64,000 bases of DNA from Thermoanaerobaculia bacterium (GTDB taxonomy: Bacteria; Acidobacteriota; Thermoanaerobaculia; Multivoradales; Multivoraceae). Within the stretch, counting starts at the first letter, position 1, and every line of letters starts with the position of its first letter. This document shows positions 4,484 to 44,466 of the stretch, piece after piece. The notes beneath the pieces were generated by a model. That model was not told the DNA's origin. It saw only the letters and a program-made list of their open reading frames with translations, and did not search any database. The translations under genes and the position numbers were made by a program. Where the stretch lies: positions 6,176,001 to 6,240,000 of the forward strand of contig OY761158.1 of the NCBI GenBank assembly GCA_963664405.1, read 5' to 3'.

Positions 4484-5419
4484 GTGCGGAAACCCAGAGG
4501 ACTGGTCGCAAACCGCCTGGTGGAGATTACCTGCCGGACACAGCAGGGACGCTTTCTCCTGTGCCCCTCGCCGGAGGTGAATCGGATCATCCTCGGCGTC
4601 ATAGGTCGCGCTCAGCGTCGCATGGGAATGACGATATGCGGGCTCGCCGTTCTCTCGAACCACTACCACATGCTGGTGATTCCCGAGAGCACGGAGCATC
4701 TGAGCGACTTCATGGAGTTCGTGAACGGTAACATCGCTCGCAAGGTCGGTGTGCTTCACGGCTGGTCGGGGAAGTTCTGGAGCAAGCCCTACAGTCACAT
4801 CATAGTTTCGGATGAGGAGGAGGCCCAGATCGGGCGTCTTTACTACCTTCTCTCTCACGGAGCGAAGGAGGGTTTGGTCCGCGACCCCAGGGACTGGCCC
4901 GGTGTTCATTGTGCAGGTCATCTCCGACGCGGCTACTCGGAAATGTTGGGCGGGGAGTGGCACGACGAGACTCAAGAGTACAACGCTCGTCGTAAAGGTA
5001 AAGAGCTGAATCTAGGCGACTTTCTGTACGAGGAGTCGGTCGTGTTGACGCCTCTTCCCTGCGCGAAGGATTGGAGCTTCAGGAAGAAGATCGAGTTGGT
5101 CCGGGGTCAGCTACGAGAGATCAGTGGGGTGGTCCGGCAGCGGATTGAGGAAACCGGGAGGCCTCCGTTGGGAGTGAAGAAGATTCTGCGGCAGGATCCC
5201 CACTTCCGGCCGGAGAAGCTGAGCAAGTCGCCGGCTCCCGCCTTTCACGCGGCCTCGAGAGAGCACTACGAGAAGCTCCGAGAGATGTATCGGGACTTTG
5301 TCAATGCTTACCGTGAGGCTGCGGAGAAGCTCAAAGAGGGAGTGCTGGATGCGGTATTCCCGCCGGGTTGTTTCCCTCCCGGACTACCTTACGTGCCCGA
5401 GGTGCGGGCCGGACCGTGA
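4484..5419 (+). CDS. HUH/Y1 transposase, RAYT-like (IS200/IS605 superfamily)
   Basis: HUH motif SNHYHML, ITCRT N-terminal motif, GKFW, Y-x6-KEGLV..P.DWPG. Confidence 0.85.
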   Translation: MRKPRGLVANRLVEITCRTQQGRFLLCPSPEVNRIILGVIGRAQRRMGMTICGLAVLSNHYHMLVIPESTEHLSDFMEFVNGNIARKVGVLHGWSGKFWSKPYSHIIVSDEEEAQIGRLYYLLSHGAKEGLVRDPRDWPGVHCAGHLRRGYSEMLGGEWHDETQEYNARRKGKELNLGDFLYEESVVLTPLPCAKDWSFRKKIELVRGQLREISGVVRQRIEETGRPPLGVKKILRQDPHFRPEKLSKSPAPAFHAASREHYEKLREMYRDFVNAYREAAEKLKEGVLDAVFPPGCFPPGLPYVPEVRAGP

Positions 5420-35256: not shown

Positions 35257-35673
35257 ATGTTGGAGTCCGAATCACTCATTCAGACTGTCCACCAGCGATT
35301 GGCCAGCTCTGCCGAAGACGAAGTCGTCTCCGCGTTCCTTTTCGGCAGCCGCGTCGAGGGACGCGGGCATCGGGAGAGCGACGTCGACGTGGCGGTCCTT
35401 CTGCGGCCTGAGCTCGACCGACGACAGCGCTTCGAGACCCGGCTGCGGCTGACCTCGGAGCTCATCGCCGCGCTCCATTTCAACGACATCGACCTCGTCG
35501 TGCTCAACGATGCTCCGCCTCTCCTCGCTCGCCGAATCGTGCTCGACGGGGAGCGGGTGTTTTGCGCCGACGCCGAGGCCGATCACGCCTTCCGACGGGA
35601 TGTGCAGCTGCGGGCCGCAGATCTCGCACCCTTCATCGAGCGTGGCCGGAGAGCGCTGCTTGCCGCGGTCTAG
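35257..35673 (+). CDS. mntA: MntA-type nucleotidyltransferase antitoxin (type VII TA)
   Basis: GSx10DxD motif GSRVEGRGHRESDVD; IDLVVLNDAPPLL. Confidence 0.88.
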   Translation: MLESESLIQTVHQRLASSAEDEVVSAFLFGSRVEGRGHRESDVDVAVLLRPELDRRQRFETRLRLTSELIAALHFNDIDLVVLNDAPPLLARRIVLDGERVFCADAEADHAFRRDVQLRAADLAPFIERGRRALLAAV

Positions 35674-35675
35674 CG

Positions 35676-36089
35676 ATGACCTTCTTGGTCGAACGCCTCG
35701 CCAACCTCAGCCTTCATCTTGCTCATCTGCGAGAGTTGAAGCCGCGCGTGGCCTCCGCTGACGATCTGCAGCGTGACCTGTCTCTACATAACGACGTTCT
35801 CTACTCGCTGCTCTGCGTTTGCCAGCTAGTGATCGATATCGCGGGGGAGCTCTCTGCTCGCCGGGGTCGACGATTCGAGGACTACACGGAGGCCGTGCGC
35901 AACCTCTCGGCCTACGACGACATGTCGCCGGAGCTCATCCAGGAGCTCGAACGGCTTCCGGGATTTCGCAACGTGCTGATCCACGAATACGTAGCCTTGG
36001 ATCTCGAGCGGGCGGTCGAGGCCCTGGAGCGCCTGTCCCCGATCGAGGACTTCGTCAGCGTGGTCAAGAGGCTCGAGCGCGAGGGCTGA
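35676..36089 (+). CDS. hepT: HepT/DUF86 HEPN RNase toxin
   Basis: Rx4HxY motif RNVLIHEY; directly follows mntA. Confidence 0.88.
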   Translation: MTFLVERLANLSLHLAHLRELKPRVASADDLQRDLSLHNDVLYSLLCVCQLVIDIAGELSARRGRRFEDYTEAVRNLSAYDDMSPELIQELERLPGFRNVLIHEYVALDLERAVEALERLSPIEDFVSVVKRLEREG

Positions 36090-36123: not shown

Positions 36124-36138
36124 TATTCGGCTGGCACC
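36124..36138 (+). repeat. Cassette-boundary repeat R1
   Basis: TATTCGGCTGGCACC between hepT and vapB. Confidence 0.8.
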
Positions 36139-36187
36139 TACGGAGGCGATACGGACATATTGACATCTCCGTGATATGTTTTTCTGT

Positions 36188-36430
36188 ATGCGTACTACCT
36201 TGAACCTCGATGACGGCTTGATGACCGCTGTTAAGAAGGCTGCTGCCGACAGCGGAAAGACCATGACCGAGGTCGTCGAAGAAGCACTCACGGATGCACT
36301 GCTGCGGCGGCCGGTCGAGGATGCTCAGTCCTTCGAACTGGCATTACCCACGGTAAAGGGCAGGACCAAGCCGGGCGTCGACCTCACCGATCGGGAGTCG
36401 CTGTTCGAGATCATGGAAGGCCGGCGTTGA
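36188..36430 (+). CDS. vapB: VapB-type RHH antitoxin
   Basis: MRTTLNLDDGL...TMTEVVEEAL; overlaps vapC. Confidence 0.85.
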   Translation: MRTTLNLDDGLMTAVKKAAADSGKTMTEVVEEALTDALLRRPVEDAQSFELALPTVKGRTKPGVDLTDRESLFEIMEGRR

Positions 36431-36861
36431 TTGCCGTCGACACCAACGTCCTCGTCCATGCCCATCGAGAGGGATCGGAGCATCACCATGCGGCTCTCGA
36501 GCGGCTGCGAGATCTGGCCGAGGGCCCGGAGCCGTGGGGCCTGCCGATCTTCTGTGTGGGTGAGTTCGTGCGAGTGGTGACTCACCCTCGTCTCTTCGAT
36601 CCCCCTTCGACGTTGGCCCAAGCCCTGGCGGTGATCGACCGTCTCCGCCGCAGCCCTACGCTTCGGGTGCTCTCCCCACGAGAGCGCTTCTTCGAGTTGT
36701 TCTCGTCGTGTCTCACGACGGCGGATGCCCGTGGCAACCTGGCTTTCGATGCCATGATCGCCGCCGTCTGCCTCGAGCACGGCGCCCGTCAGCTGCTCAC
36801 ACTCGACCGCGACTTTCGCCGCTTTGATCGACTTGAGGTGGTTGGTTATGGGCCGGCCTGA
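36427..36861 (+). CDS. vapC: VapC PIN-domain toxin
   Basis: IAVDTNVLV, EF.RVVTHP, DA.IAA, TLDRDF. Confidence 0.92.
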   Translation: MIAVDTNVLVHAHREGSEHHHAALERLRDLAEGPEPWGLPIFCVGEFVRVVTHPRLFDPPSTLAQALAVIDRLRRSPTLRVLSPRERFFELFSSCLTTADARGNLAFDAMIAAVCLEHGARQLLTLDRDFRRFDRLEVVGYGPA

Positions 36862-36880: not shown

Positions 36881-36919
36881 TATTCGGCTGGCACCCTTGC
36901 CCGCACCCTTGCCCACGGG
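36881..36919 (+). repeat. Cassette-boundary repeat R2
   Basis: TATTCGGCTGGCACCCTTGCCC-GCACCCTTGCCC-ACGGG (internal 12-bp duplication relative to R3). Confidence 0.85.
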
Positions 36920-36996
36920 GACACGCGAACCATCAATCCTTTCTGCTCTCCAGCTGCCGGCGGAGGGTACGTTAGAATGTGAGCGAGGAGATTTCC

Positions 36997-37194
36997 ATGG
37001 CTACCGCCGACGTCAGCGCGAAAACTCGAATCCGTAATCTGCTAGAGCAGCAGCCCGACGACAGCTCGTACGATGAGATCTTGCGAGAGTTGGCCCTGCA
37101 CCGCATGATCGAGCGAGGCCTCGCCGATGCAGACGCAGGGCGGGTCCTCAGCCATGAAGAAATGGGCCGTCGAATCGACTCATGGGCCAAGTAG
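36997..37194 (+). CDS. Antitoxin of a ParE/RelE module
   Basis: IERGLADADAGRVLSHEE...W pattern; RBS GAGGAG; overlaps the toxin start. Confidence 0.8.
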   Translation: MATADVSAKTRIRNLLEQQPDDSSYDEILRELALHRMIERGLADADAGRVLSHEEMGRRIDSWAK

Positions 37195-37478
37195 GATGGA
37201 CCGAAGAGGCGGCCCGTTGGCTCAGAGAAATCCACGACTACATCGCTGATGAGGACCCGGAGGCTGCCATCCGAGTCGTCGGCGAGATCCACTCTCGCGC
37301 TGAGTCACTGACCTCGTTTCCTGAGCGTGGCTACCGCTACCTGGATCTGCCCGAGCGAGAAGTACGCATTCTCCTGTGGGGCCACTACCGGATCGCGTAT
37401 CTCGTCCGCTCGTCGGGTGACGTCGAGATACTCGGCATCTTCCACGGGGCACTCGAGATCGAGCGGTACTTGCGCTGA
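37182..37478 (+). CDS. RelE/ParE family toxin
   Basis: WTEEA..WL.EI.DYIA.EDP.AA, L..FPERG, YRIAY, ILGIFHG. Confidence 0.9.
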   Translation: MGQVGWTEEAARWLREIHDYIADEDPEAAIRVVGEIHSRAESLTSFPERGYRYLDLPEREVRILLWGHYRIAYLVRSSGDVEILGIFHGALEIERYLR

Positions 37479-37510: not shown

Positions 37511-37537
37511 TATTCGGCTGGCACCCTTGCCCACGGG
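37511..37537 (+). repeat. Cassette-boundary repeat R3
   Basis: TATTCGGCTGGCACCCTTGCCCACGGG. Confidence 0.85.
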
Positions 37538-37596: not shown

Positions 37597-37854
37597 ATGG
37601 AGGACACCGACACTAGAACGATTCCGGCTGGTGACTTCAAACAGACCTGTTTGAAACTGATAGATGAGGTCAAGACCACGGGGATCCCGATCGTGATTAC
37701 GAAGCACGGCAAGGCCGTCGCCCAGCTTGCGCCACTGGAGCCGGACCAGATCGAGCTTCCCTGGCCGCTCGAGCTCGCCGCGCGCGCGACGATCGAAGGG
37801 GATCTCGTAACCCCGGCGACCGACCCGACAGAGTGGGAAGTTCTTTCAGATTGA
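37597..37854 (+). CDS. Phd/YefM antitoxin
   Basis: IPAGDFKQTCLKLIDEV..TG.PIVITKHGKAVAQL. Confidence 0.9.
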   Translation: MEDTDTRTIPAGDFKQTCLKLIDEVKTTGIPIVITKHGKAVAQLAPLEPDQIELPWPLELAARATIEGDLVTPATDPTEWEVLSD

Positions 37855-38243
37855 AGCTCCTCCTCGATACCCACGTCTGGCTCTGGCGCTTGATCGAGCC
37901 CGCGCGGCTGTCGAAGGACGCCACTGCTCTGCTGGCCGAACGTGAGCAGGAGCTCTTTTTGTCACCGATCTCGGTCTGGGAGACCATGGTCCTGTGCCGG
38001 AAGGGTCGGCTGACCCTGCGGCCGGACCCGGCGTCTTGGGTTCGTGCGGCTCTCGCTGGCTCGCCGGTCAGAACCGCCCTCATGACGCACGAAGTCGCGA
38101 TCCGCAGCGAATCCCTGGAAGGTTTCGACAATTCGGATCCCGCCGACCGCTTCCTAGTGGCTACGGCTCTCGAGGCCGGTCTCAAGATCGTCACCTACGA
38201 CGAGCGAATCCGCTCCTATGCGGCGGTCGAAACGGTCTGGTGA
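37851..38243 (+). CDS. vapC: VapC PIN-domain toxin
   Basis: LLLDTHVWLW, SPISVWE, DPADRFLVATA, VTYDERI; TTG start overlapping the antitoxin stop. Confidence 0.9.
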   Translation: MKLLLDTHVWLWRLIEPARLSKDATALLAEREQELFLSPISVWETMVLCRKGRLTLRPDPASWVRAALAGSPVRTALMTHEVAIRSESLEGFDNSDPADRFLVATALEAGLKIVTYDERIRSYAAVETVW

Positions 38244-38284: not shown

Positions 38285-38297
38285 TACTCGGCTGGCA
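38285..38297 (+). repeat. Cassette-boundary repeat R4, split by the intron
   Basis: TACTCGGCTGGCA | intron | CC (40333-40334) rejoins to TACTCGGCTGGCACC. Confidence 0.85.
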
Positions 38298-40332
38298 GTG
38301 CGACACGAAGGAGGAATCTGATGACCTGATCGAAAGACAGAGATAGGAGACCTCTGGGTCTCGAAGGCCGGCGGGTGAAAGTCCCGCCCGGGGAGTTGTC
38401 GGTACACCCCGGTAGCCGCCGGAGCAGTCGATGCGGGTGACCGTCCGGCTGAAGCCTCCGGAACAGCTGGAGTAAGTCCAGTGGGCAAAGGTGCAGGCCG
38501 CAACGCGAGTGAACCCTGAGAAGGCCCCGAAAGTTACTTGCTGGAGCCGACCCTCCTGCCATAAGGGGAAGGCCGCCGCTCGACGGAGGAGCAACCGACC
38601 GTTGAATCCGCCGAATCCAGCCGGGGTAGTGGGGGTGGCATGTACCGAAGGTCTTTGAGGCAACGTGTGAGACCCACGTCGGTGGCGGGTTGCGACCGCC
38701 AACCGGGAAGGCGTAAAAGGTCGTTCTCGGGCCGTTGTGGGAGTCGGAGGGGCTTGTATTACTGAGGAAGCCGGGTAACTCCGGTGGAGGGAAGGAGCCC
38801 TAGTTCTGGTGCGCTTTGGAAGGAGAAGGAGACCGGGATTGACGCAAAGTCTAGGACCCGAACGAGTCGAGCGACTCCGGAAGAAGCTGTGTGACAAGGC
38901 CAAGCGAGAGCCCGACTTTCGCTTCTACACCCTGTACGACAAGGTCTGCTGGCCCGAGACCCTATCTGTGGCCTACGCCCGCGCGAAAGCCAACCGGGGA
39001 GGCCCGGGAGTGGACGGAGTCCGGTTCGAGGAGATCGAGTCGTATGGGGTCGAGCGATGGCTGGGAGAGCTCCGAGAGGAGCTGGTAGAGGAAAGCTACC
39101 GTCCGCAACCGGTGCGGCGGGTGAAGATTAGGAAGCCCGGCGGCGGAGAGCGTGCGCTCGGGATCCCGACGATTCGGGATCGAGTGGCGCAAACCGCCGC
39201 AGTGCTGATCCTCGAGCCGATCTTCGAGGCCGATTTTGAAGAGAACGTGTATGGGTATCGACCGAAGCGGAGCGCCCATGATGCGCTAGCTGCCGTACGA
39301 GACGGTTTGTACGAGGGCCAGGCCCACGTCGTCGACGCCGACATCGCCCAGTACTTTGACACGATTCCCCATGGGGATTTGCTGAAGTCGGTGGCGCGTC
39401 GGATCGCCGATGGGAAGATCCTGCGACTCTTGAAGCTGTGGCTGAAGTCTCCAGTGGACGAGCAAGATGGCTCGGGTCGCTGGCGACGGACAGGCGGCAA
39501 GAAGAGGAAGCGGGGGATTCCGCAGGGTGGGGTGGTCTCACCCCTCCTGGCCAACATCTACATCAACCGGCTCGTGCGTCACTGGCGCAACTCAGGCGCC
39601 TCGAAACGCCTAGGTCAGATCGTCTCTTACGCCGATGATTTCGTCATCCTGTGCAGGAGCGAGGCGCAGGCTCGCGAGAGCTTGGATCTCGTCTCTCACT
39701 GGCTGACAAAGCTCGGCTTAGCGATTCACCCGGACAAGACCCGCCTGTGCGGGGTGTGGGAGGAGTCGTTCGACTTTCTGGGGTACACCTTCAGATCGCA
39801 TCGACGCTTCCGCACCGGCCAGCGGATCTTGACTGCGAACCCTTCGAAGAAGGCCCAGAAGCGGCTCCAGGAGAAGGTCAACGCCCTGCTGTATCGGGGG
39901 AACCCGGAGCCCTGGCCCGAGCTGCGTCTGCAGCTGAACCGTCTTTTGATGGGATGGGCCAACTACTTCAGCTTCGGATGGACGGCAGCTGCGGATCGCG
40001 CCGTCTGGTGGCATGTCGCGAGACGTGCCCGACGATTCCTCTGTCGACGACACAAACTCCGATCGCAAGGAGTCGCCCGGTTTTCTGCCTCCGAGGTCTA
40101 CGGCTCAGCCGCAGTCCTCGACATCAAGCAGTACCGGGATCGAAAGGGTCGACTCGCGCATGCCTCGTCGTGAAGCCAGTCCGGGAGCCGTGTGCGGGAG
40201 AACCGCAAGCACGGTTCGATGAGAGGCGGCGGGAAACGGAGCCATGGTCAGGAGATTGAGGCACTCGCAAACGAAAGGGCGAGAAAACAGATGGGCCTGA
40301 CCTACAGCCACCGCGCCCGCCGTCGACTCCAC
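38298..40332 (+). mobile_element. Group II intron (about 2035 nt)
   Basis: 5' GUGCG; domain V GAGCCGUGUGCGGGAGAACCGCAAGCACGGUUC at about 40185-40218; long domain VI ending ...GACUCCAC; encodes an RT/maturase. Confidence 0.92.
38839..40173 (+). CDS. ltrA: Group II intron reverse transcriptase/maturase, no endonuclease domain
   Basis: RT0 PGVDG, LGIPTIRDR, YGYRP.RS, PQGGVVSPLLANIY, YADD, FDFLGY, maturase GWANYF. The TTG start at 38839 is approximate. Confidence 0.95.
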   Translation: MTQSLGPERVERLRKKLCDKAKREPDFRFYTLYDKVCWPETLSVAYARAKANRGGPGVDGVRFEEIESYGVERWLGELREELVEESYRPQPVRRVKIRKPGGGERALGIPTIRDRVAQTAAVLILEPIFEADFEENVYGYRPKRSAHDALAAVRDGLYEGQAHVVDADIAQYFDTIPHGDLLKSVARRIADGKILRLLKLWLKSPVDEQDGSGRWRRTGGKKRKRGIPQGGVVSPLLANIYINRLVRHWRNSGASKRLGQIVSYADDFVILCRSEAQARESLDLVSHWLTKLGLAIHPDKTRLCGVWEESFDFLGYTFRSHRRFRTGQRILTANPSKKAQKRLQEKVNALLYRGNPEPWPELRLQLNRLLMGWANYFSFGWTAAADRAVWWHVARRARRFLCRRHKLRSQGVARFSASEVYGSAAVLDIKQYRDRKGRLAHASS

Positions 40333-40374
40333 CCTTTTTCTGGGCGCCACTGCGCGGCTATATGACCGTCGCCC

Positions 40375-40387: not shown

Positions 40388-40453
40388 TGAAGCATGTACA
40401 CTCCGCACAATCAGCGCCAGAGAAAACGCTCATCGAGCGCGAGCACAACCTAA

Positions 40454-42458
40454 GGGTCGGCGCGGAAATAAGTTTCCAGTATCTGGGGTGACCATACCAC
40501 TGCCCCCTTCTTCAGCCACCGCATAATCCTCCGGTACGCGCCTTGTTTGCAAGGTTTAGAGCTAGCATAGCCCTGCCCGCATTTGGTATAGTTTCCCCTG
40601 TCACCTCTTTTGGAAGGGGAACTATACCAAATGGTACGAGCCGAAGATCGTGATGCAACAGTGCGCGAGCTCTTGATGAGCGAACAGATGGCCACCATGG
40701 ATGAGCTCAAGGACGCCATGGGAACCCGAGCCACCATGACGGTCTACCGTTCGCTGTCTCGATTGGGCTATTTGGCCAGCTACTCGGATCGAGGGCGGTT
40801 CTATACCTTGAACGAGATTCCCGATTTCGACGATCTGGGTTTGTGGTCGTGCGGTTCGGCGAGGTTCAGTCGGCATGGCAGCCTCCTCGAAACTGCGGTG
40901 GCTGCCGTGGACCGGTCCGCTGCCGGCTATACGGCTTCTGAACTCGAGCTCCTGCTGCAGGTCGAGGTCAAGCACGCGATGTTGCACCTCGTTCGTCGCA
41001 AGAGAATCGTACGATCCAGAGTTGGGAAGAGGTTCGTATACTTGTGCTCGGAAACAGGGCGCCGTCGTCAGCAGAAGCTGATGCGCAACGAACGGCAGGC
41101 TCTCCAGGATGTAGCTGCCAGCCTCGTTCCAGAAGTGCTCCCCGAGGAGCTCAGGGCTGCCATCGTTTTATTCTTCAGCCTGCTAGACGAACGCCAGCGG
41201 CGGCTCTTCGCTGGCCTGGAAGCGACCAAGCTCGGGCATGGCGGCGACCGGAAGATCGCCGATCTTCTGGACCTGGACCCTCATACAGTCGCAAAAGGAC
41301 GTCGCGAGCTCTTCGGCGGCTCCGTGGAGCGCGGAAGAGTTCGAAGAGCAGGCGGTGGCAACCAACGAGTGGAAAAAAAACGCCCGAGATAGTCGATGGA
41401 ATCCATTCCATACTCGAGGCCGATATAGCTGGTGATCCCATGTCATCAAAAAGATGGACGCACGAGACCGCTGCAAAGGTGGCCCAATGCCTTGCCGAAC
41501 GCCTTGACATCATCGTATCGGCTACGGTGGTGCGTCGATTGCTCGCAGACCTGAACTATTCCCTCAAGAGCAATAGGAAATGTCTGTCTTCGGGGAACTC
41601 CCCAGATCGTGATGCACAGTTCAAGGCCATCAAGCGACTGCGCGAGGATTTCACAAGCGCTGGCGACCCGATCATCAGCGTCGATACGAAGAAGAAGGAG
41701 CTGATCGGTCGGTTCAAGAACCAGGGACAGACATGGTGCCGCGAGGCCAAGCGGGTCAAGGATCACGACTTCCGGTCCGAAGCTCTCGCCATCGCCTCCC
41801 CCTATGGGATCTACGATCTTCAGAGGAACTTCGGCGTTCTCGTCCTCGGACAGTCGTCGGACACGCCGGAGTTCGCTGTCAACAGCATCGCGACCTGGTG
41901 GCTCAAATACGGTCGATCTCACTATCCGGCGTCTCAGCGTCTCCTCATTCTTGCCGACAGCGGCGCAAGCAACGGCGCACGGCTTCGAGCCTGGAAGAAG
42001 TACCTCCAGGAGAAGCTCGTAGACAAGTGCGGCCTCATCATCACCGTCGCCCACTATCCAACTGGCACCAGTAAATGGAATCCCATCGAGCACAGGATGT
42101 TCAGCGAGATTAGCAAGAACTGGGCCGGAGTTCCTCTCGAGAGTTTCGAGATCCTCGTCAACCTCGTCCGCAACACGACGACATCCACCGGACTGCGCGT
42201 CGAGCCGTGCCGTGATCAACGCCAATACCAGAAAGGAGTCAGGGTATCGGACAAGGAAATGCTGCAGCTCGCGGTGGCCAGGAGCGACTTCCTAGGAAAG
42301 TGGAACTACACCCTCTCGCCGAGACCGCGAACCGAGCAGGAAGAGCTTGCCCCACAGCCTGGGCTCAGCTCACCACCACCTCCAATGCAGCGACCGCCCT
42401 GTGGCGCCTCGGCCTCACACGCTCCGGCGATAATGTGAAGTTATTTCCGCGCCGACCC
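40454..42458 (+). mobile_element. ISAzo13-family IS, copy 1 (2005 bp)
   Basis: 18-bp TIR GGGTCGGCGCGGAAATAA / TTATTTCCGCGCCGACCC; left flank TAA. Confidence 0.92.
40631..42438 (+). CDS. ISAzo13 transposase via a predicted -1 frameshift at A8 (41373-41380)
   Basis: OrfA LDERQRRLFAGLEA..LGHGG...RVRRAGGG; OrfB GDPMS, ISVDTKKKELIG, HDF, ADSG.SN, HYPTGTSKWNPIEHRMFS. Confidence 0.9.
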
Positions 42459-42461
42459 TTA

Positions 42462-44466
42462 GGGTCGGCGCGGAAATAAGTTTCCAGTATCTGGGGTGAC
42501 CATACCACTGCCCCCTTCTTCAGCCACCGCATAATCCTCCGGTACGCGCCTTGTTTGCAAGGTTTAGAGCTAGCATAGCCCTGCCCGCATTTGGTATAGT
42601 TTTCCCTGTCACCTCTTTTGGAAGGGGAACTATACCAAATGGTACGAGCCGAAGATCGTGATGCAACAGTGCGCGAGCTCTTGATGAGCGAACAGATGGC
42701 CATCATGGATGAGCTCAAGGACGCCATGGGAACCCGAGCCACCATGACGGTCTACCGTTCGCTGTCTCGATTGGGCTATTTGGCCAGCTACTCGGATCGA
42801 GGGCGGTTCTATACCTTGAACGAGATTCCCGATTTCGACGATCTGGGTTTGTGGTCGTGCGGTTCGGCGAGGTTCAGTCGGCATGGCAGCCTCCTCGAAA
42901 CTGCGGTGGCTGCCGTGGACCGGTCCGCTGCCGGCTATACGGCTTCTGAACTCGAGCTCCTGCTGCAGGTCGAGGTCAAGCACGCGATGTTGCACCTCGT
43001 TCGTCGCAAGAGAATCGTACGATCCAGAGTTGGGAAGAGGTTCGTATACTTGTGCTCGGAAACAGGGCGCCGTCGTCAGCAGAAGCTGATGCGCAACGAA
43101 CGGCAGGCTCTCCAGGATGTAGCTGCCAGCCTCGTTCCAGAAGTGCTCCCCGAGGAGCTCAGGGCTGCCATCGTTTTATTCTTCAGCCTGCTAGACGAAC
43201 GCCAGCGGCGGCTCTTCGCTGGCCTGGAAGCGACCAAGCTCGGGCATGGCGGCGACCGGAAGATCGCCGATCTTCTGGACCTGGACCCTCATACAGTCGC
43301 AAAAGGACGTCGCGAGCTCTTCGGCGGCTCCGTGGAGCGCGGAAGAGTTCGAAGAGCAGGCGGTGGCAACCAACGAGTGGAAAAAAAACGCCCGAGATAG
43401 TCGATGGAATCCATTCCATACTCGAGGCCGATATAGCTGGTGATCCCATGTCATCAAAAAGATGGACGCACGAGACCGCTGCAAAGGTGGCCCAATGCCT
43501 TGCCGAACGCCTTGACATCATCGTATCGGCTACGGTGGTGCGTCGATTGCTCGCAGACCTGAACTATTCCCTCAAGAGCAATAGGAAATGTCTGTCTTCG
43601 GGGAACTCCCCAGATCGTGATGCACAGTTCAAGGCCATCAAGCGACTGCGCGAGGATTTCACAAGCGCTGGCGACCCGATCATCAGCGTCGATACGAAGA
43701 AGAAGGAGCTGATCGGTCGGTTCAAGAACCAGGGACAGACATGGTGCCGCGAGGCCAAGCGGGTCAAGGATCACGACTTCCGGTCCGAAGCTCTCGCCAT
43801 CGCCTCCCCCTATGGGATCTACGATCTTCAGAGGAACTTCGGCGTTCTCGTCCTCGGACAGTCGTCGGACACGCCGGAGTTCGCTGTCAACAGCATCGCG
43901 ACCTGGTGGCTCAAATACGGTCGATCTCACTATCCGGCGTCTCAGCGTCTCCTCATTCTTGCCGACAGCGGCGCAAGCAACGGCGCACGGCTTCGAGCCT
44001 GGAAGAAGTACCTCCAGGAGAAGCTCGTAGACAAGTGCGGCCTCATCATCACCGTCGCCCACTATCCAACTGGCACCAGTAAATGGAATCCCATCGAGCA
44101 CAGGATGTTCAGCGAGATCAGCAAGAACTGGGCCGGAGTTCCTCTCGAGAGTTTCGAGATCCTCGTCAACCTCGTCCGCAACACGACGACATCCACCGGA
44201 CTGCGCGTCGAGCCGTGCCGTGATCAACGCCAATACCAGAAAGGAGTCAGGGTATCGGACAAGGAAATGCTGCAGCTCGCGGTGGCCAGGAGCGACTTCC
44301 TAGGAAAGTGGAACTACACCCTCTCGCCGAGACCGCGAACCGAGCAGGAAGAGCTTGCCCCACAGCCTGGGCTCAGCTCACCACCACCTCCAATGCAGCG
44401 ACCGCCCTGTGGCGCCTCGGCCTCACACGCTCCGGCGATAATGTGAAGTTATTTCCGCGCCGACCC
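42462..44466 (+). mobile_element. ISAzo13-family IS, copy 2 (direct tandem)
   Basis: Same TIRs; TTA spacer to copy 1; right flank TAA; at least 3 substitutions relative to copy 1. Confidence 0.92.
42639..44446 (+). CDS. ISAzo13 transposase via a predicted -1 frameshift at A8 (43381-43388)
   Basis: Same two-ORF organisation as copy 1. Confidence 0.9.

Follow-up and report, generated by a model that had tools for sequence, protein, structure and literature searches.

An endonuclease-less group II intron within the core of a dispersed, putatively REP-like repeat of a Thermoanaerobaculia genome

A group II intron splits a repeat located behind toxin-antitoxin genes

We analyzed a 64,000-nucleotide stretch (referred to as the window) of the genome of Thermoanaerobaculia bacterium (GenBank assembly GCA_963664405.1, contig OY761158.1), in which a full-length group II intron of 2035 nt (38298 to 40332, + strand) interrupts one copy of a short repeat that follows toxin-antitoxin (TA) genes. 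The genome is a single 6.78-Mb contig, of which the window represents positions 6176001 to 6240000. Coordinates are window positions unless they are marked G000 (this genome); G019, G020, G021, G022, and G028 are related genomes, and G035 is another assembly. A sequence-only reading of this DNA had described the insertion and its guide pairing and had interpreted the intron as belonging to a lineage specialized on a cassette repeat; the observation is confirmed here, and the interpretation is partly supported.

Three uninterrupted copies of the 15-mer TATTCGGCTGGCACC, starting at 36124, 36881, and 37511, precede the intron on the + strand. According to profile searches, R1 (36124 to 36138) lies 35 nt past the stop codon of a HepT-like gene (35562 to 36089), R2 (36881 to 36895) lies 20 nt past that of the VapC (PIN) gene in a VapB/PIN pair (36176 to 36861), and R3 (37511 to 37525) lies 33 nt past that of ParE, which is paired with an unnamed antitoxin (36979 to 37478). 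With up to three mismatches to the 15-mer allowed, the window contains 12 matches, whereas 100 shuffles averaged 2.06 matches and never attained this number. The fourth copy, R4, starts 42 nt beyond a Phd/YefM-PIN TA pair (37597 to 38243, + strand; profile search) that lies directly 5' of the intron. Its 5' part is TACTCGGCTGGCA (38285 to 38297, + strand), the last five bases of which (UGGCA; 38293 to 38297) form intron-binding site 1 (IBS1), as assigned from the repeat match and from covariation with exon-binding site 1 (EBS1); its 3' part is the CC at 40333 to 40334 (+ strand). The junctions read ...AAATACTCGGCTGGCA^GUGCGACACG...GUCGACUCCAC^CCTTTTTC..., with carets after 38297 and 40332. Removing the intron joins TACTCGGCTGGCA to CC and restores the repeat with one mismatch, as had been stated earlier.

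Read directly, the intron begins with GUGCG at 38298 and ends with ...CUCCAC at 40332, followed by the 3' exon CC from 40333. The repeat alone would also allow a 3' boundary one base earlier; 40332 is preferred because of the conserved ...GACUC(C/U)AC end and the bulged A40326 seven bases from the end. The Rfam model RF02003 (group-II-D1D4-4) matched the core of domain I (38369 to 38508, + strand; 99.4 bits; E value of 5.9e-21). The alignment supports a putative alpha/alpha' interaction between GUCGGU (38398 to 38403, + strand) and ACCGAC (38594 to 38599), with one covarying pair of sequences, i.e., the alternative GUCGCUC/GAGCGAC carried by a diverged paralog described below. Domain V (40185 to 40217, + strand; GAGCCGUGUGCGG-GAGAA-CCGCAAGCACGGUUC), which has an AGC triad and the 5-nt terminal loop GAGAA, was placed by alignment and by RF00029 (41.4 bits; match from 40183, + strand). 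Domain VI (40221 to 40332, + strand) is unusually long (~110 nt), and A40326 is its bulged adenosine, the seventh base from the 3' end; the Rfam alignment draws this domain out wrongly, and its 3' end was disregarded. The basal stem of domain VI covaries: GGCGGCGGG/CCCGCCGUC of this intron is replaced by GGGGACGGG/CCCGUCCUC at four loci within a single metagenome-assembled genome and by GGGAUGUGG/CCACAUCUC in a relative of 49% identity.

The intron-encoded protein (38809 to 40173, + strand; 454 aa) is a reverse transcriptase (RT) with a maturase domain (X) and a YADD motif. Profile searches placed RVT_1 at residues 107 to 328 (1.1e-40) and the GIIM maturase domain at residues 351 to 417 (1.7e-10) and identified no further nuclease domain C-terminal of GIIM. 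The protein is thus endonuclease (En)-less, as had been noted before. We conclude that positions 38298 to 40332 are a genuine, intact group II intron. It is the sole copy in the genome with an open reading frame (ORF) and the only locus matching query positions 1 to 2035. The group II hallmarks (i.e., the GUGCG 5' end, the CAC 3' end, the domain V triad, the domain VI bulged A, and the RT-maturase protein) are present, and the genome holds six copies of intron DNA at cognate sites with unrelated flanks; the intron is probably mobile.

Among the contigs of four public runs, none joins 38297 to 40333; these contigs are therefore silent on splicing or on an empty site. An ORF-less form, in which 38910 is joined to 40052 with 6 other letters between, occurs in contigs of two DNA and two RNA-library runs. 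In the RNA-library contigs, its depth (35 and 22.6) is ~10 times that of the RT ORF (~3 to 4), a ratio between contigs that cannot prove transcription; the contigs reveal no transcript ends, and such libraries may contain DNA.

EBS1 covaries with the 5' exon

UGCCA (38557 to 38561) lies in the loop of a hairpin (38551 to 38567, + strand) that RNAalifold recovered from 24 distinct homologs, with a CCCU/AGGG stem and a 9-nt loop (CCUGCCAUA); the fourth base pair of the stem covaries too (U-A, A-U, and G-C). Scanning genome contigs with the RT led to 47 loci, in 24 of which both the intron 5' end and the loop could be placed, in addition to two introns of this genome. The loop of the placed introns always reverse-complements the last exon bases, five to seven of them (e.g., loop/exon CAGAAGC/GCTTCTG, TGAGAAA/TTTCTCA, TGAATAA/TTATTCA, CAGAGCC/GGCTCTG, AAAGGG/CCCTTT, and TGACA/TGTCA), and wobble loop variants (TGTCA) were found with the exon TGGCA. 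All seven IBS1-EBS1 pairs vary on both sides in an alignment of 25 introns, and the observed covariation score was reached by none of 500 shuffles. Exon positions -1 to -5 are paired in 24 to 25 of these 25 introns, position -6 in 13, and position -7 in 5; paired cells amount to 87.6%, compared with 26 to 50% when the partners are slid. The proposal that UGCCA represents EBS1 is confirmed by this covariation.

A diverged paralog in the same genome (G000 884854-886834, minus strand; RT 48% identical) has the exon ...CCACCGCTTCTG and the homologous loop CAGAAGC. An IS6-family transposase gene (...YRGHRFPPEII...) holds this paralog within its 5' part.

Across 24 introns, none of the loops was seen to covary with exon positions -6 to -14. 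Two candidates for EBS2 were rejected, i.e., GCCGA just 5' of the EBS1 hairpin, which is invariant in introns with unrelated exons, and GCCGAAU near 38610, which lies within the stem of the alpha' hairpin and does not covary with the exon. Folding of the intron, which had been suggested as a check, upheld the EBS1 hairpin; EBS3 was not located, and the class appears to be IIB-like, not IIC (see below).

All intron copies occupy a probable homing site of ~12 nt

Six places in the genome hold the intron 5' end, and the sequence farther upstream is unrelated among them. Besides the window copy, they comprise an ORF-less derivative of ~850 nt (G000 2592101-2592951; query positions 1-613, 1749-1783, and 1840-2035), two more ORF-less copies with nested insertions (G000 2890811-2892986 and 6396014-6401261), and two 5' fragments (G000 1589105 and 2075364, both on the minus strand). 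The 5' junctions are TCGG[CG]TGGCA^GTGCG in 6/6 cases, i.e., within this genome the intron resides only in the repeat; the four readable 3' junctions continue with CCT (three) or CTT (one). In G035, both copies of a 99%-identical intron are located at TCGGCTGGCA and TCGGGTGGTA (...ataaTCGGCTGGCA and ...atatTCGGGTGGTA), and all copies of the two assemblies (6/6 and 2/2) fit TCGG[C/G]TGG(C/T)A^. A contig from one public run of another sample reads ...tctTCGGCTGGCA (...cagaatctTCGGCTGGCA).

The genome contains 729 empty [CG]TGGCACC sites, 63 of which bear TCGG, and TCGG precedes 41 of the 213 intergenic sites; these and later intergenic counts use our own gene heuristic, which is based on ORFs and third-codon-position GC content (GC3), covers 79% of the genome, and misses short genes. 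Were TCGG irrelevant, finding it at six of six occupied sites would have a probability of ~1e-4 (from 41/213 intergenic sites), and thus something beyond the five EBS1 pairs picks sites. Close relatives (RT identity of >=70%) retain (C/G)TGGCA^CC(T), and their positions -6 to -12 are variable. Among related introns, position +1 is C in 20/21 and position +2 is C in 17/21, and more distant relatives occur at unrelated sites, with EBS1 changed in compensation. The probable homing site is ~12 nt long, TCGG(C/G)TGGCA^CC(T), and its last five 5'-exon bases are read by EBS1, as shown by covariation.

The 11-mer core is not enriched in five genomes with close intron relatives (observed/control, 41/57, 46/58, 52/89, 23/30, and 23/20), which indicates that the link between intron and repeat is local and not lineage-wide. 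Together with the varied positions -6 to -12 and the unrelated sites of distant relatives, this result speaks against the earlier claim of a specialized lineage. A comparison of the exons of homologs had also been suggested: close relatives do keep TGGCA^CC, and the expected TA or defense neighbors were seen in only 2 of 20 flanking ORFs in other genomes (a TIR domain and DUF1902), which were chosen by a crude GC3 rule.

Cumulative GC skew placed the replication origin at ~2.74 Mb and the terminus at ~6.76 Mb, and the replichores are therefore unequal (~4.0 and 2.8 Mb). With this placement, the intron copies are co-oriented with the fork (sense strand leading) in 5/6 cases, compared with 28/63 empty sites, an orientation bias that is suggestive of fork-linked insertion.

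The two ORF-less copies with insertions contain a second, unrelated group II intron (GTGCGCCAGG...CCGACCCGAC; G000 2891268-2892598 and 6396959-6400873) at about intron positions 461 to 463 (...GGGGCTTGTATT^ACTGA...) and are thus twintrons. Further copies of the nested intron are found at G000 2679570-2681605 and 3046979-3050253, and the full-length intron of the window keeps its target word uninterrupted (38747 to 38770). One of the ORF-less copies also contains a 475-nt element that resembles transposable elements of the miniature inverted-repeat type (MITEs; G000 6396423-6396897), with inverted repeats at its termini (TGAGAGTGAGCACGATAATCGATGG...) and a duplicated CAACCGG; at least eight full-length copies of this element (95 to 100% identity) are present in the genome.

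Intron class and comparison with described introns

Introns of class IIC have a small ribozyme and a very short IBS1. The RNA studied here has ~670 nt of noncoding sequence, an EBS1 pairing of 5 to 7 nt, and the catalytic triad AGC, and, judged by these traits, it is not IIC. It is best described as IIB-like with traits reported for IIE and IIF introns, a label read from RNA traits. Traits given for IIE/IIF introns include a 5-nt domain V loop, alpha' in the terminal loop of DId3, and, in IIF, a long structured domain VI (PMC3753933); class E introns are described there and elsewhere as lacking an En domain (PMC3753933; PMC3552965). Like the class E/F introns Cl.be.I2, Pe.th.I2, and Ge.ur.I1-1, the present intron has a 5-nt domain V loop (GAGAA), a domain VI of ~110 nt, no En domain, and alpha' (ACCGAC) in a terminal loop, which here lies 3' of EBS1. 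It differs from them in that an EBS2-IBS2 pair is clear in those introns, and the search here located none. A class assignment via the Rfam model number was discarded, as RF02003 is not tied to any class in the two papers mentioning it. The closest plasmid-borne RTs are rhizobial (52 to 55% identity) and bear no class label.

RmInt1 of Sinorhizobium meliloti, a class D intron, likewise encodes an En-less RT/maturase and has a multicopy homing site (ISRm2011-2). Its target is the gene of an insertion sequence (IS), whereas the target here is an intergenic repeat of 12 to 15 nt and no EBS2 was found; the class is also probably different. Insertion of the RmInt1 type is expected into the lagging-strand template (PMC8914252; PMC1802570).

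IIC-attC introns (e.g., S.ma.I2) share with this intron the absence of En and a position at the repeated boundary of gene cassettes in TA-rich arrays. They are described as entering attC on its bottom strand, in the orientation opposite to that of the cassette genes (PMC3001079), whereas the present intron is co-oriented with the cassettes, and it differs further in the absence of an attC-like fold and of an integron integrase, in its large ribozyme, and in its 5- to 7-nt EBS1. A hairpin upstream of the site, the trait of IIC-type insertion at terminators, was present at only 4 of 63 repeat sites. Another comparison is provided by the cluster of attC sites lacking an integron integrase (CALIN) of Halorhodospira halochloris (Sonbol and Siam 2021), in which a non-IIC intron resides in an integrase-less TA array near IS200/605-type genes; the fragments in this TA-rich CALIN are reported as class E/IIB (PMC7923331). 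There, IntegronFinder called the attC sites, and the introns are in truncated form; the present array has an intact intron and a repeat unlike attC.

The repeat forms a genome-wide family of its own

The genome contains 63 empty copies of TCGG[CG]TGGCACC, compared with 2 in a reversed-sequence control, and 49 of the 69 sites (63 empty and 6 occupied) are intergenic according to the crude gene model. In a set of 30 relatives, most genomes from the same family have the 12-mer at control level, and some genomes from the same order are enriched for it (copies versus control, 28/4 in G019, 45/5 in G020, 34/2 in G022, 33/6 in G028, and 43/17 in G021). The repeat is thus recurrent in its own right, as had been proposed, and its enrichment extends to relatives without this intron. 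No full-length RT of >48% identity was found in the 30 relatives; a single C-terminal fragment is 63% identical. Because the repeat-rich relatives lack a close RT and the intron-bearing genomes are unenriched, the histories of the repeat and of the intron clade are separate, and the two come together in this genome and, with two copies, in G035. Searching nine repeat-bearing loci against Rfam at E values up to 1 revealed no matching family.

In relatives, the repeats are often arranged in tandem with a 29- to 33-nt period or as back-to-back inverted pairs 24 to 45 nt apart. Tandem arrays include a 33-nt period (ggcctctgacatTCGGGTGGCACCttccaggg x3) and a 29-nt period (ggcggttgcaacTCGGCTGGCACCtttcc), at loci L064 (G020:C4:118300-119300) and L065 (G028:C4:115000-120500).

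A perfect hairpin of >=6 bp occurs within 45 nt downstream of 21 of the 63 copies, compared with 184 of 2000 random intergenic stretches (9%); GGCAGCC-GAAG-GCTGCC is one such downstream hairpin. In one subfamily, the whole unit GGCAGAATGTTCGGCTGGCACCTTGGCAGCCGAAGGCTGCC folds into a single long hairpin whose tip lies close to the insertion point (z scores of -3.9 and -2.5). The spacers containing R1 to R3 yielded top-strand z scores of +1.5, +1.1, and -1.5 and bottom-strand z scores of +0.9, +1.2, and -0.8, i.e., the three window cassette spacers fold no better than shuffles on five of six strands, and the -1.5 of the top strand stems from an operator palindrome farther on. The suggestion that the repeat is a single-stranded or hairpin-forming site is therefore plausible for part of the family, given the hairpin excess and the link to the genes described in the next section; R1 to R3 lack a hairpin.

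Elsewhere in the genome, 9 of 40 small ORFs next to repeat copies are TA related (two HicA, two PIN, Phd, a FitA-like RHH protein, HipA and its HTH partner, and a weak BrnT), and 4 are transposase pieces. The remainder are unrelated or unknown, besides truncated genes that match part-profiles of MFS, PQQ, DUF6880, GRDB, and DUF1326. Among the six intron copies, only that of the window is preceded by a recognized TA pair.

Repeat copies accompany RAYT-like genes

The genome encodes 13 proteins with a Y1_Tnp domain; G000 2207920-2208825 is one of these RAYT-like genes. In 8 of the 13 genes, an exact GGTGCCA[CG]CC (i.e., the repeat core in reverse complement) lies 164 to 365 nt upstream of the Y1 domain, always in one orientation; positions -208 to -212 hold four of these upstream copies, and positions -259/-260 hold two, despite differing surroundings. 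In a ninth Y1 gene (G000 6395045-6395956, minus strand), the upstream copy is split by the intron copy at 6396014. The number expected by chance is ~0.05 (arithmetic from the 139 such 10-mers in the genome). For all five proteins tested, the best NCBIfam match was NF047646, the model of the tyrosine transposase (RAYT) that is associated with repetitive extragenic palindromes (REPs), and LSNHxHxL, an HUH motif, occurs in the proteins together with a conserved Tyr. The window itself contains a Y1 gene (4484 to 5419, + strand; 311 aa; NF047646, 40 bits). The 700 nt upstream of its Y1 domain contain no exact core.

In G022, two RAYT homologs are located between inverted repeats, 40 to 43 nt before the start codon and ~247 nt after the stop codon, and a third has the upstream copy only. 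RAYTs are defined by two inverted flanking REPs (PMC2817692), and because the G022 pairs reproduce this arrangement, we read the repeat as the putative REP-like sequence of a RAYT-like HUH/Y1 gene family. As in the REP/RAYT system of Nunvar et al. (2010), HUH/Y1 genes are accompanied by a short repeat from intergenic DNA, and some of the genes seen here have inverted copies of it on both sides. The differences are that the proteins here are of ~300 aa, are below the model cutoff, and have an extra C-terminal half, that mostly only the upstream copy is present in this genome, and that many copies lack a palindrome.

Mobile elements (e.g., ISPpu9, ISPpu10, ISPa11, and ISPsy8) are known to use REPs as insertion targets. 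In a published table, the association is 100% for several ISs, and the group II intron of P. putida KT2440 is listed with 2/9 (PMC1525189). A search of open papers for group II introns that home into REP or RAYT repeats turned up this entry only. The present case differs in the 6/6 association, in the visible pairing of EBS1 with the core, in its Acidobacteriota host, and in a repeat whose 12-nt core is linear and whose hairpin is optional.

Interpretation of the locus and competing explanations

We consider it probable that the En-less group II intron homes into the conserved core of a dispersed REP-like family of RAYT-like genes, and that neither an integron nor an IIC-attC relationship is involved. 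In this genome, the homing site coincides with the conserved core of a mostly intergenic repeat (63 empty and 6 occupied copies), and the repeat would therefore give the intron many harmless landing sites. The sole autonomous copy, behind the Phd-VapC pair, may have seeded the ORF-less derivatives and fragments at other repeats, or may support them in trans; the ORF-less copies would depend on the protein of the window copy. Insertion would most likely proceed by reverse splicing into transiently single-stranded fork DNA, primed by the nascent lagging strand, as is assumed from knowledge of En-minus introns, for which this route is described (PMC4424553; PMC8914252). Zimmerly and Semper list three target habits of bacterial introns, namely, homing sites, terminators, and attC (PMC4424553). 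The present case is homing-site behavior, the site happening to be the core of a repeat.

The locus would provide a natural example of harmless spread by an En-less group II intron, in which covariation makes the rule relating guide and target explicit. The REP-like repeat and the family of ~300-aa RAYT-like proteins in an Acidobacteriota order may hold wider interest than the intron.

Several points weigh against this interpretation. The 6/6 association may reflect the intron's own sequence specificity and not a property of the repeat, because the genomes of the relatives are unenriched and G035 holds two copies without enrichment. The orientation bias is just 5/6, with an origin set by GC skew alone, and neither EBS2 nor EBS3 was located by searching 5-mers complementary to exon positions -18 to -5 or by inspection of the alignment. 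The RAYT-like proteins score 39 to 59 bits with NF047646, compared with a cutoff of 80 bits (22 to 25 bits with the IS200 model), and at ~300 aa they include an uncharacterized C-terminal extension of ~170 aa. A second, inverted repeat downstream accompanies just 1 of the 13 Y1 genes of this genome. The hairpin occurs in only a third of the repeat copies and is absent from R1 to R3 in the window, and 63 copies are few for a REP family, such families usually having >100 copies according to the source cited above (PMC2817692).

Some of these points would fit a rather improbable alternative, in which the intron is as described and the repeat is another kind of short site (e.g., an operator half-site, an mRNA 3'-end element, or an unrecognized MITE end), its association with Y1 genes being one use among several. 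Copies that are solo, in tandem with a 29- to 33-nt period, or back to back and inverted 24 to 45 nt apart are compatible with such a site, as are the many copies without a hairpin, the Y1 proteins below the RAYT cutoff, and the truncated genes or IS fragments among the neighbors. However, this alternative hardly accounts for the fixed-distance, fixed-orientation link to 8 or 9 of the 13 Y1 genes, the inverted flanking pairs of G022 reproduce the arrangement that defines RAYTs (PMC2817692), and Rfam matched none of the repeat-bearing loci. It is also conceivable, although unlikely, that the repeat is the single-strand recognition site of the RAYT-like HUH proteins and additionally marks the 3' boundaries of TA modules, that the intron is tuned to the same site, and that the REP/RAYT system shuffles TA modules; two unrelated mobile systems that need transiently single-stranded DNA would then meet on one sequence. 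A repeat delimiting mobile TA cassettes would amount to a non-integron cassette system.

The sequence-only reading had favored an attC-like site in an integron-like TA array, with an intron lineage that is specialized on the repeat and may build cassettes. We regard this reading as very unlikely, although the window does contain four TA-type cassettes in one orientation, with the repeat 20 to 42 nt past each stop codon, TA-related ORFs recur next to repeat copies elsewhere (9/40), and the class E/IIB intron fragments of the TA-rich CALIN offer a precedent (PMC7923331). The best TIGR02249 (integron integrase) match reached 122 bits, compared with the cutoff of 265 bits, and the middle of the model is missing from the matches; sub-cutoff matches of this kind turn up in all 14 control genomes too. 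The window spacers, with z scores near those of shuffles, lack an attC-like fold, no GTTRRRY core was seen in the repeat by eye, and the repeat copies share just 15 to 33 nt. In addition, the intron runs in the direction of the genes, opposite to what is reported for IIC-attC introns (PMC3001079), the RNA appears IIB-like and not IIC, most repeat copies lie away from TA cassettes, and the flanks of relatives are TA or defense related in only 2/20 ORFs. Nothing was found in support of a role of the intron in forming cassettes. An integron-like system with a cassette-forming intron is thus removed as a reading of the locus.

It is barely credible that the intron itself gave rise to the repeat copies, either by carrying them along as it spread or by leaving them as footprints when it was lost. 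The 12-mer common to occupied and empty sites would be expected in that case, but genomes with 34 to 45 repeats hold no close RT relative, and genomes with close intron relatives are not enriched. Group II retrohoming, moreover, requires a preexisting site.

Other sequences around the repeat and the intron

A HipB-like/HipA pair (G000 6324603-6326407) lies between two inward-facing 44-nt units, each consisting of the repeat and a hairpin, with an IS6 fragment just outside. Two IS6 fragments adjoin repeats; the possibility that the repeat is the terminal inverted repeat of the IS6 family was rejected, as ten aligned IS6 copies end GGTACTGTCAAGTT.../...AAGTTGACAGTGCC instead. A reading of TGGCAC as part of a sigma-54 promoter was likewise discarded, since by eye the GG-to-GC spacing does not fit. 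Words resembling TGTCAAC show a weak excess upstream of the repeat (10/69). Directly 3' of the intron, two tandem IS copies with a DDE_Tnp_ISAZ013 transposase occupy positions 40440 to 44455; their spacing is 2008 nt, and their first 300 nt are 98% identical. A second repeat family, CCAA[CG]TGGCACC, is represented by 27 intergenic copies in the genome.

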